A stretch of 64,000 nucleotides of DNA from Schmidtea polychroa (taxonomy: Eukaryota): NCBI GenBank assembly GCA_044892525.1, contig CM097885.1:32924001-32988000 (forward strand), given 5' to 3'. The notes below the pieces were generated by a model that made no database searches, was not told the origin of the DNA, and saw only the letters and a program-made list of their open reading frames with translations. A program made the position numbers and the translations under genes. Below, in pieces: positions 12,601 to 15,600 of the stretch (position 1 is the first letter of the stretch; each line of letters opens with the position of its first letter).

Positions 12601-15600
12601 AAAAACATGTGTGTATTACACACAAAACAAGATACATAATTTCTAATCAATCCATTTTATAGAAAATTAAATTTTATCTATATATTATATGAATAAAATC
12701 CTAAGAAAATTACGTTAACTGTATGAAAAATACAAATTTATCATAAAAACATGTGTGTATTACACACAACATACGAGACATAATTTTTAATCAAGCTATT
12801 TTATAGAAAATTAAATTTTATCTATATAATATATGAATAAAAATCCAAGAAAATTACGTTAACCGCGCGAAAAACTACAAATTTATTGTAAAAACATGTG
12901 TGCATTACACACAAAGCATCAAACTGAAATTGTAATTGCGCCATGTTGTAGAGAATTAAATTCTGCCTATACATTGTTACACTTAAATCTCGATCAGACA
13001 TGTGAAAAGAGACATAAAAGATAAAAAACAGTAGAGTAGTATGATGTGGGCCCGCCCGGCCAGGAGCCCGCTCGGCCACATATACCCCCTCCCCCCCCCC
13101 CCCCGGGAAAAAATTTTATTTTTTTTTTAGAACGATGCCTAATATTTTTAGAACTATTACGTAATCAATGCCTAATATCTTTAGAACGATGCCTAATATT
13201 TTTAGAACTATTACGTAATTTTTTTTAAATTAAGTGATCCAGCGGGGACCTACTTTTTTTCTTCCCAAAAGTAATGTTCCCGCCAACAAATTTTATTAAC
13301 CGATACCTCATCTTAAAGCTCAGTCCAAGACCTTTCGAATGAGCTATAGGTATCTTATATATCTTTAATAGTTTTAATGTTATTAACAATTGATGACCAC
13401 CATCTTTTCAACGTTAAATTATTATTATTTTTCAAAATATTATTAAGTGATCCAGCGGGGACCTACTTTTTTTCATCCCAAAAATTGTTGTTCCCACCAA
13501 CATATTATATTGATCGATAGCTTATTTTAAAGCTCAGTCCAAGAACTTTCTAATGAGATATAGATTTTTATCATACGATGACTCATCACATTTTTAGAAC
13601 AAAGACAATGACTCATCACATTTTTAGAATGATGTCTAATATTTTAGAATGATGCCAAATATTTTTAGAACGATGCCTAATATTTTTAGAACGATGCCTA
13701 ATATTTTTAGAACGATGCCTAATATTTTTAGAACTATTACGTAATCGATGTCTAATATTTTTAGAACGATGCCAAATATTTTTAGAATGGTGCCTAATAT
13801 TTTTAGAACGATTACGTCATACTTTTAGAACGATGCCTATTATTTTTAGAATGATGCCTAATATTTTTAGAACTATTACGTAATCAATGCCTAATATTTT
13901 TAGAACGATGCCTAATATTTTTAGAACTATTACGTAATTTTTTTAAATTAATTGGTCCAGCGGTGACCTACTTTTTTTCTTCCCAAAAGTAATGTTTCCA
14001 TCATCCGAATTTATTAATCAAACACTTATTTTAAAGCCCAGTGCAAAATCTATATACTGATATATAAATATTATTATTAACATTATTTTACACACGGGGG
14101 GGAGGGGGTATATGTGGCCGAGCGGGCTCCTGGCCGGGCGGGCCCACATCATACTACTCTACTGTTTTTTATCTTTTATGTCTCTTTTCACATGTCTGAT
14201 CGAGATTTAAGTGTAACAATGTATAGGCAGAATTTAATTCTCTACAACATGGCGCAATTACAATTTCAGTTTGATGCTTTGTGTGTAATGCACACATGTT
14301 TTTACAATAAATTTGTAGTTTTTCGCGCGGTTAACGTAATTTTCTTGGATTTTTATTCATATATTATATAGATAAAATTTAATTTTCTATAAAATAGCTT
14401 GATTAAAAATTATGTCTCGTATGTTGTGTGTAATACACACATGTTTTTATGATAAATTTGTATTTTTCATACAGTTAACGTAATTTTCTTAGGATTTTAT
14501 TCATATAATATATAGATAAAATTTAATTTTCTATAAAATGGATTGATTAGAAATTATGTATCTTGTTTTGTGTGTAATACACACATGTTTTTACGATAAA
14601 TTTGTATTTATTATACGTTAACGTAATTTCCTTGGATATTTATTCATATATTATATAGATAAAATTTAATTTTCTATAAAATGGATTGATCTAGAGTTTA
14701 AAATGTTGTATTATTTTATTACTTTGTTGCAATATTTTTATTATTTTAGTTACAATATTCTTTTTAATTTGTTGTCCGTCTTCGAAATAATGTATTGATT
14801 TGTCTTAATTACCATTATTATTTTATTACTTTGTTGCAATATTTTTATTATTTTAGTTACAATTTGATAAATATTTTACAAATTTGTTGAAATTTTCTGA
14901 AATATGTTACTACTTTGTTGTAATATTTTCTAATCTTGTTACAATTTGCTTAAATATTTTACAACTGTTGAAAATTTATCTGAAATATGTTATTACTTTG
15001 TTACAATTTTATGAAAACGTTATTACTGTTTTGCAATTTGATGAAAAATGATATTACTTTGTGGGTTCATCACATTATTTTTATTAAATTATTATGAAAA
15101 TGTTAAATAAGTCAACTTTAGCGTCAAAATGTGTTTTAAAATATGTCCCGTATGTAAGACTAGTGACCCCGTAACATATAGCGTTTTTTATAATAAACAT
15201 AAAAATCATTTAGATAGGTTTAATTTTAAAAAAGATAGTGTTTTTAAAAGACCCTCAACTATAGAAAAAAATAATAAAAATTAAAAAATTAAATTAGATA
15301 CTTCTTCTTTTGAATCCCAGGTCGGATTGCCTTTTGTGGAATCCAATGATGGATTGGTTGTCGAATCCCATGATGGATTGGTTGTTGAATCCCAGGTCGG
15401 ATTAGATAATATTTCCCTTGACTCTTGGGATGGATTAAATATAATACAAATAGGTGGAAATGTTCCAATAATACAAAAAGATCTAAGAGGTACCCATCAA
15501 ATATTAAGCTTAAATACAAGCGACTTAAATATAAAAGAAATAATATTTCCTGAACAACTAATAAAAAAATTACGAGATATTATTAACGAATTAGGCTCCG

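Follow-up and report, generated by a model that had tools for sequence, protein, structure and literature searches.

How did a second pair of Polinton-type ends come to mark the axis of a palindromic Polinton/Maverick derivative, and did that pair give rise to the palindrome? The question is raised by a 13,411-bp element in a 64-kb window (the whole stretch of DNA that was analysed), for which a sequence-only reading had proposed a nested mini-element at the palindrome centre. The central feature is real and is probably a nested Polinton-type relic that marks a fold-back and is now inherited as part of the palindrome; the relic may have caused that fold-back. A route is thereby suggested from the insertion of one Polinton into another to giant non-autonomous palindromes. 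In addition, a family whose arms are 99.9% identical within a copy and differ by 10–14% between copies allows fold-back or panhandle copying to be tested by sequence comparison.

The outer palindromic element and its polymerase genes

The Polinton/Maverick derivative spans 6891–20301 and is flanked by a perfect 6-bp TSD, the direct repeat CAAGTC, which lies on the forward strand at 6885–6890 on the left and at 20302–20307 on the right. Its left arm (6891–13097, forward strand) and its right arm (14096–20301, reverse strand, an inverted copy of the left) are near-identical, with 99.87% identity over 6,208 columns. The differences consist of three substitutions (6985, 10244 and 10245), the length of one G run and one AAT unit. 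The palindrome was integrated as one unit, since the CAAGTC duplication flanks the whole of 6891–20301, and a read chimera is unlikely since the arms differ at five places and the outer TSD is present. Both outer termini read AGTAGGGAG, an AG/AGT-type motif that is not the exact (AGT)2 of PMC8097293. The left outer end (6891–6932, forward strand) starts with AGTAG, followed by a GC-rich stretch and then a G run, and subterminal AT-rich tandem repeats with a period of about 31 are found in the arm at 7239–7868.

According to the accessible parts of PMC8097293 and 10.1101/2023.08.22.554363, Polintons are recognised by a 6-bp TSD, an end motif and pPolB; here the TSD, an inverted-repeat end motif and a pPolB homologue were all found. 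Intact vertebrate Polintons/Mavericks measure 12.7–24.6 kb, with TIRs of 46–1,447 bp, in the accessible part of PMC8097293. The element resembles them in its ends starting with AGT, its 6-bp TSD, its polinton-type pPolB and its length of 13.4 kb, and the 68-bp inner repeat described below lies inside the TIR range. Unlike the elements described there, it has 6.2-kb arms, far above that range, carries pPolB twice and broken, lacks the other core genes and contains a second pair of ends.

In each arm there is a single gene, for a protein-primed DNA polymerase B (pPolB) directed outward, and these two copies are the only genes found in the element. The C-terminal part is a 960-aa open frame on the reverse strand (8284–11166; PF03175, E 1.9e-31) that faces the outer end, with its mirror copy on the forward strand of the right arm at 16027–18909. 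The N-terminal part (11167–12058, reverse strand) is homologous to residues ~14–310 of 1,240-aa relatives. In total 209 homologues were found, the best with 61% identity; relatives are 1,150–1,270 aa long and the alignment starts at about 12058. The N-terminal part contains a frame change near 11417 and an in-frame stop near 11911, which read alike in both arms, and both breaks lie within A-rich runs, so that an assembly error is possible.

Two other causes of the breaks were considered. Tiny introns were rejected, since an alignment of 213 residues of a relative takes up 642 bases and leaves them no room. The other is that terminal protein and polymerase are naturally split, as in the coral polinton in the accessible part of PMC11161782. 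The stretch from the frame change to 11166 contains no ATG, and a stop interrupts the upstream part, so that a broken gene is the more likely explanation. The N-terminal region of polinton pPolB comprises the terminal protein and vOTU domains (PMC11161782, accessible part), and since this is the broken region, the 13.4-kb copy probably cannot prime its own replication. Among the ORFs in 6891–20301 no integrase, ATPase, protease or capsid gene was found, and besides pPolB the only frame of ≥100 aa is a single one of 107 aa that overlaps pPolB. An intact pPolB and the integrase/ATPase/protease/capsid set, by which an autonomous Polinton is defined, are both lacking. The suggestion that the element had become a polymerase-only vehicle is not supported for the present copy, in which pPolB carries the frame change and the N-terminal stop in both arms.

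The inner ends and the block between them

The innermost part of the arms is formed by two exact inverted copies of 68 bp, 100% complementary and 998 bp apart, at 13030–13097 (forward strand) and 14096–14163 (reverse strand), from which the inverted repeat extends outward for 6.2 kb. The left inner end consists of AGTAGAGTAGT, a GC-rich stretch and a C run reaching 13104. The repeat start reads AGTAG(A)GTAGT, and the outer boundary of the 1,134-bp block was set by composition and motif alone, at 13030 or, for an AGTAGT start, at 13035. The inner repeats have a GC content of 0.68, as against 0.32 for the flank and 0.28 for the spacer, which bears out the abrupt switch to GC-rich sequence noticed earlier at the innermost ~65 bp of the arms. 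When 68-bp windows with GC ≥0.55 were collected over the 64 kb, four clusters were obtained, one at each outer end and one at each inner end. Within the 64-kb window, each strand has a single occurrence of AGTAGAGTAG. A hairpin in the inner repeat was not convincing (z −1.6 and −1.9).

Inner and outer ends share a common layout of AGTAG, GC-rich stretch, homopolymer run and AT-rich tandem repeats, with the homopolymer differing, a G run in the outer end and a C run in the inner end. Their likeness is modest: of 2000 shuffles in each case, 35 reached the score at the level of single bases and 31 at that of dinucleotides. Ranking of 65 AGTAG sites placed the inner ends (score 25) next after the outer ends, with the best other site at 15; the offsets at 13035/14158 scored 20 in the same ranking. 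The resemblance to the outer Polinton terminus proposed by the sequence-only reading was confirmed to this modest degree, the inner ends being the best of the 65 sites after the outer ends. As a supporting observation, no GC-rich stretch led by AGTAG is present in the window apart from the inner and the outer ends.

The flanks of the inner block are mirror images and never direct repeats (lengths of 2–9 bp, three boundaries tried). They are mirrored because the arm was duplicated, and therefore no TSD is readable in this copy. Palindrome symmetry breaks within the homopolymer run, which reads C14-G at the left inner end and C7-G at the right one.

Between the inner ends lies a non-palindromic spacer of 998 bp (13098–14095), made up of 21-bp tandem repeats and three units of ~134 bp on the forward strand. 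Unit 1 (13220–13353) contains two hairpins (z −4.1 as RNA and −4.4 as DNA) and has a tail to about 13440; unit 2 is found at 13434–13567; unit 3 (13938–14087) ends early, at 14087, compared with other genomic copies. Nothing convincing was found as a coding frame in the block, only repeat-derived stop-to-stop frames of ≤76 aa. Neither Rfam (6800–14300) nor the ARAGORN tRNA search gave a match, and the Pol III A-box-like motif of the spacer units, with 11 matches in the window where 10.6 would be expected, gave no evidence of a promoter of this type.

Short inverted ends with a family motif and the absence of coding capacity, as in a MITE, were both found in the inner block, with the right repeat possibly being a product of the fold-back. 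In its behaviour the block is like the end pair of a non-autonomous Polinton. Like MITEs, the block is short and non-coding and has perfect terminal inverted repeats; unlike them, it measures 1.1 kb, consists mostly of tandem repeats and is known here without its own TSD or an independent copy. No second copy of the 1,134-bp block was found within the 64-kb window.

Upstream of pPolB, a 144-bp tandem repeat is present in 2.9 copies at 12498–12915, and a worn fourth copy (12930–13029, forward strand; 0 of 1000 shuffles) comes directly before the inner end. The site therefore looks like an insertion of foreign DNA into the array. Spacer and arm share AT-rich pieces of ≤36 bp only, for which reason the block itself looks foreign. 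The 1,134-bp block is likely to be the relic of a second Polinton-type element.

Related copies in read contigs and databases

Contigs from 4 of 14 public runs (two studies; one possibly the source sample) were aligned to 12915–14185, and the matches listed comprise 32 pieces and 24 loose ends, beside a further 83,811 and 1,316, respectively. These contig results are suggestive. The whole stretch 12915–14185 is highly repeated in the contigs, flank included. Variant letters make up 28–55% of the depth at 13022 and 9–42% at 13026, in contigs with up to 31–33 letters to their ends, which suggests that this region is present in many diverged copies.

Fifteen flank pieces among the matches listed reach 13025 or beyond, one of which merely ends there and was excluded. 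Ten of the 14 informative pieces, 86–90% identical, continue into AGTAG as far as 13035–13039, and at least four of these ten keep the first 6–10 bases of the end before 20–50 unlike letters follow. The remaining four (85% identical, all from one study) stop at 13026–13028, with at least 47 unlike letters thereafter; these relatives, halting 1–3 bases before AGTAG, are a weak sign of empty sites. No piece with 31 letters on both sides of the junction was present among the matches listed. One listed piece, 91% identical, spans 14068–14172 and includes the spacer tail, the right repeat and 9 flank bases, and judging from it the palindrome centre, with its right junction, is common to a diverged subfamily. 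The contigs suggest an old multi-copy family with copies 10–14% diverged, in which the junction between flank and AGTAG has been kept.

A large free-standing family carrying the inner end should produce a step up in depth at AGTAG. Across the four runs, and with the two ends added together, base 28 of the inner repeat had a depth of 0.69, 0.22, 0.29 and 0.54 relative to 13026, and the ratio of 13072 to 13026 was 0.75, 0.71, 1.08 and 2.02; contig depth is not copy number, and GC bias and the 85% identity cut-off could mask part of any step. No pile of contig starts or ends was reported on 12915–14185, and none of the 24 loose ends listed falls at 13030 or 14163. These data suggest that free copies with the inner end are few, if any, and the free-standing MITE family expected by the sequence-only reading did not emerge: depth inside the inner repeat stayed at 0.22–0.69 of that outside.

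The spacer behaves differently. At 14087, 25 contigs of one run and 8 of another continue differently, and a contig joint links 14087 to the earlier position 13383, which makes the block's right side a breakpoint in a longer repeat array. At spacer base 13412 the depth is 3.6 to 105 times that of the inner repeat, which speaks against a compact unit and is better explained by a piece of a larger, common element.

Pattern searches gave 0 matches for the inner end in viral contigs and in metagenome contigs and 0 matches for the 21-bp repeat in viral contigs, while a pattern scan of both contig sets found no autonomous partner with the same ends. Phage records gave no match. The one match to the spacer pattern in metagenome contigs (L014) was discarded as fortuitous, being 22 bp long and lying in a contig of bacterial type with 54% GC. 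pPolB searched as a single protein found no match in viral contigs; searched as an alignment, it gave 13 loci with 26–33% identity. The block has no DNA likeness to these 13 loci, relatives too distant to bear on its origin. Metagenome runs containing small shares of the stretch were considered as a sign of habitat and provide no evidence of one. A literature search, which covered listings and abstract openings and reached few subscription papers or Repbase reports, turned up no account of nested inner ends in a palindromic Polinton. PMC6431247, PMC3014272 and PMC3597656 contributed nothing specific.

Origin of the palindrome centre

As the best explanation we tentatively favour a one-time nested insert of Polinton type, whose short repeats seeded a fold-back and which is now a fixed hub. 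A second Polinton-type element with inverted ends of ~70 bp would have entered the host Polinton a single time, landing in the repeat array that lies upstream of pPolB. A strand begun at the polymerase-side end would then pass through the insert and pair the second repeat with the first. The paired strand would copy itself back during strand-displacement synthesis, doubling the polymerase arm and dropping everything beyond, to yield a palindrome with two usable outer ends. This product would be copied and integrated by polymerase and integrase borrowed from intact relatives. Spread through such helper enzymes is probable, given that the integrase gene is absent and pPolB is broken alike in both arms. 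Once formed, the 6.2-kb arms, and not the inner ends, would make the panhandle that keeps both arms identical; the inner ends would be needed only once, because the arms, once present, can form a panhandle themselves. The 1,134-bp block appears to travel now as the fixed hub of a multi-copy family.

For this explanation it counts that symmetry stops just where the GC-rich end has its inner edge; if a pair of repeats already existed, no coincidence is needed. Against it, none of the 24 loose ends listed represents the pre-fold-back state, in which the right repeat would lead into a directly duplicated stretch and then into the parent. The breakpoint at 14087 and the great depth of the spacer units also count against it. 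The original proposal of a mini-element that inserted upstream of pPolB and seeded the fold-back is thus upheld in part: the end type, the worn-repeat site and the symmetry break agree with it, and a free MITE family is not supported. It is unlikely that the inner ends are still working, in a two-tier element whose 1.1-kb Polinton satellite, having seeded its carrier, can be excised or exchanged at the conserved AGTAGAGTAG junction. Should this be true, the satellite would be a natural hyperparasite, and the palindrome a germ-line counterpart of the inverted-repeat rearrangements of adenovirus vectors.

A single end may instead have been captured, which we regard as possible though rather doubtful. 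In that case just ~1.07 kb from the left of a different Polinton-type element, or of a palindromic relative's arm, would have been joined to the host arm, and a template switch at the C/G run would have made the second 68-bp repeat, so that a two-ended mini-element never existed. In favour of this, spacer unit 3 is shortened at 14087 relative to other copies, inner ends are much rarer than spacer units, and symmetry breaks inside the homopolymer run (C14-G against C7-G), a likely slippage site. Furthermore, the 8 bases before the right G run recur in the 144-bp repeat (12616, 12760 and 12905) in the manner of a templated filler, a match that was chosen after the fact and is found once in 50 kb outside the element. 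Such a capture, however, demands that the return point coincide with the inner edge of the GC-rich end when several kb were possible, and a pairing of 8 bp would be a much weaker primer than one of 68 bp; nor is a donor family with the inner end abundant, as depth does not rise inside the end. Less probable still is that the inner ends are a standing part of the parent family's design and that this copy merely lost its central genes. They could be, for example, the ends of a core element that always lies between giant repeats carrying the polymerase, or an internal signal resembling an origin or promoter. The four listed flank relatives without the inner end argue weakly against such a constitutive part, as does the position of the block after a worn repeat unit, which is insertion-like; the lack of a DNA match to the block in the 13 viral relatives says little at 26–33% identity. 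In its favour are the junction common to copies 10–14% diverged, the at least four listed pieces that keep 6–10 end bases and then diverge, as if a terminal motif were conserved, and the butterfly polintons with gene-carrying TIRs of ~2 kb in the accessible part of 10.1101/2025.02.07.637071. Were the block no more than a fixed relic or a captured end, the finding would shrink to a detail of a palindromic family.

Slightly less likely again is a free 1.1-kb Polinton MITE family, still or recently mobile and with many insertions, one of which made its helper a polymerase-only vehicle. Size, short perfect inverted ends, the lack of a coding frame and the Polinton end motif are all compatible with it, the spacer sequence is very abundant in the contigs, and contigs with a repeat overlap of only about 30 letters reveal unique flanks poorly. 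It is opposed by the lack of a clear step up in depth inside the inner repeat in the four runs, by the lack of a reported site with many contig starts or ends and of a second copy in the window, and by the broken pPolB in both arms. An artefact, namely a fold-back read chimera, or ends from a cut-and-paste superfamily (CAGTAG...) are very improbable. Although the true boundary of the block and its TSD length are unreadable in this copy, the perfect 6-bp TSD surrounds the whole palindrome, the arms differ at five places and both junction regions are covered by contigs of independent runs; the CAGTAG reading is not preceded by TA, and the end resembles the outer Polinton end.

Internal inverted repeats in adenovirus genomes yield products with one end duplicated around the insert. 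Adenovirus vector genomes were reportedly rearranged through internal inverted repeats in work by Steinwaerder et al. in 1999. The precedents invoked earlier for inverted-repeat rearrangement and for the seeding of palindromes hold in the accessible parts of PMC2518115 and PMC2444050. In the former, non-terminal inverted repeats rearrange replicating adenovirus genomes, with replication-linked deletion, and engineered tail-to-tail dimers carry an AAV ITR at the symmetry axis. The nested-insert explanation shares with these vectors a protein-primed, strand-displacing replicon rearranged via non-terminal inverted repeats. Unlike the vectors described there, which are engineered, extrachromosomal and not inherited, the palindrome is natural, integrated with a TSD and diversified as a family. 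According to the latter source, short repeats next to breaks seed long palindromes. These too have pre-existing short repeats at the centre, around a non-palindromic spacer, but they need an adjacent double-strand break and host repair, as far as that source describes them, while here the spacer is 1 kb and the seed resembles a transposon end.

A hairpin or duplex deletion derivative of the kalilo linear plasmid is said to have been described by Vierula and Bertrand in 1992. Inverted repeats adjoin integrated invertron plasmids in the accessible part of PMC1864894. The palindrome is comparable to such plasmids in being derived, in palindromic form, from a replicon that has terminal proteins and forms panhandle intermediates. 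It differs in that they are mitochondrial and without an integrase, and a nested second pair of ends does not appear in what is accessible of that literature. Among polintons themselves, those with gene-bearing 2-kb TIRs or transposon cargo stay mobile (10.1101/2025.02.07.637071, accessible part), and in C. elegans pPolB-plus-TIR loci without integrase and TIR-linked inversions are described in the accessible part of 10.1101/2024.01.15.575659. Nested insertion, gene loss, continued mobility and genes doubled within TIRs are features in common with these loci. In contrast to the cargo polintons as described there, with LINE or LTR cargo and polB lost, the nested piece is bounded by ends of Polinton type and no gene but polB has been kept. 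Replication of Polintons via a racket-like single-stranded intermediate is put forward as a model in the accessible part of PMC4196379.

The host is an AT-rich eukaryote. Elsewhere in the window, a 312-bp inverted pair at 52918 and 62668 is a dispersed repeat unrelated to the palindrome.

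Arm differences and pPolB breaks

The left and right arms of the palindromic Polinton derivative were compared over 6.2 kb and showed only three substituted positions, including a 2-base difference inside pPolB (window 10244–10245 and 16948–16949, respectively). Both pPolB breaks (window 11167–12058; mirror 15135–16026) were the same in the two arms and are therefore older than the last arm-to-arm copying. If these breaks are real, copying and insertion of the element continued after damage to its own polymerase. The pPolB frame change sits immediately before a region resembling a vOTU domain, a likeness that we assume from its motif.

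pPolB relatives and their surroundings

The closest pPolB clade (41–66% identity; among the listed protein homologues P0001–P0060) came almost only from metagenome contigs, many of which were 3–7 kb long and barely exceeded the length of the gene. Repeats or palindromes surrounding the gene could have broken these assemblies. On the viral contig L008, a distant relative, pPolB was located between inverted repeats of 1.18 kb (2260–3424 and 10852–12034) that were 83% identical.

Proposed fold-back junction and spacer units

The 8 bases preceding the right G run (14088–14095), at the inner edge of the right inner end, were found again in each 144-bp repeat unit upstream of the left-arm pPolB (12616, 12760 and 12905), and are possibly templated filler at the fold-back junction. 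A short near-palindrome was also observed within each 144-bp unit (window 12600–12630 and copies).

Within the spacer, two hairpins were predicted in unit 1 (window 13232–13360; z −4.1 as RNA, 0/200 shuffles), with weaker folding in unit 2 (z −1.8) and unit 3 (z +0.4). All three units start with an 11-mer, presumably A-box-like, followed by a T run; the frequency of this motif within the window was not above chance, and Rfam and tRNA searches returned no match for the units.

Other mobile-element sequences

A reverse transcriptase frame of 501 aa (3669–5174, + strand; PF00078) is probably Penelope-like, judging from a C-terminal motif that we take to be of this type. A DDE_1 transposase fragment of 142 aa (56650–57078, + strand; PF03184) was situated between both copies of a ~312-bp dispersed repeat (52918–53229 and 62668–62979).
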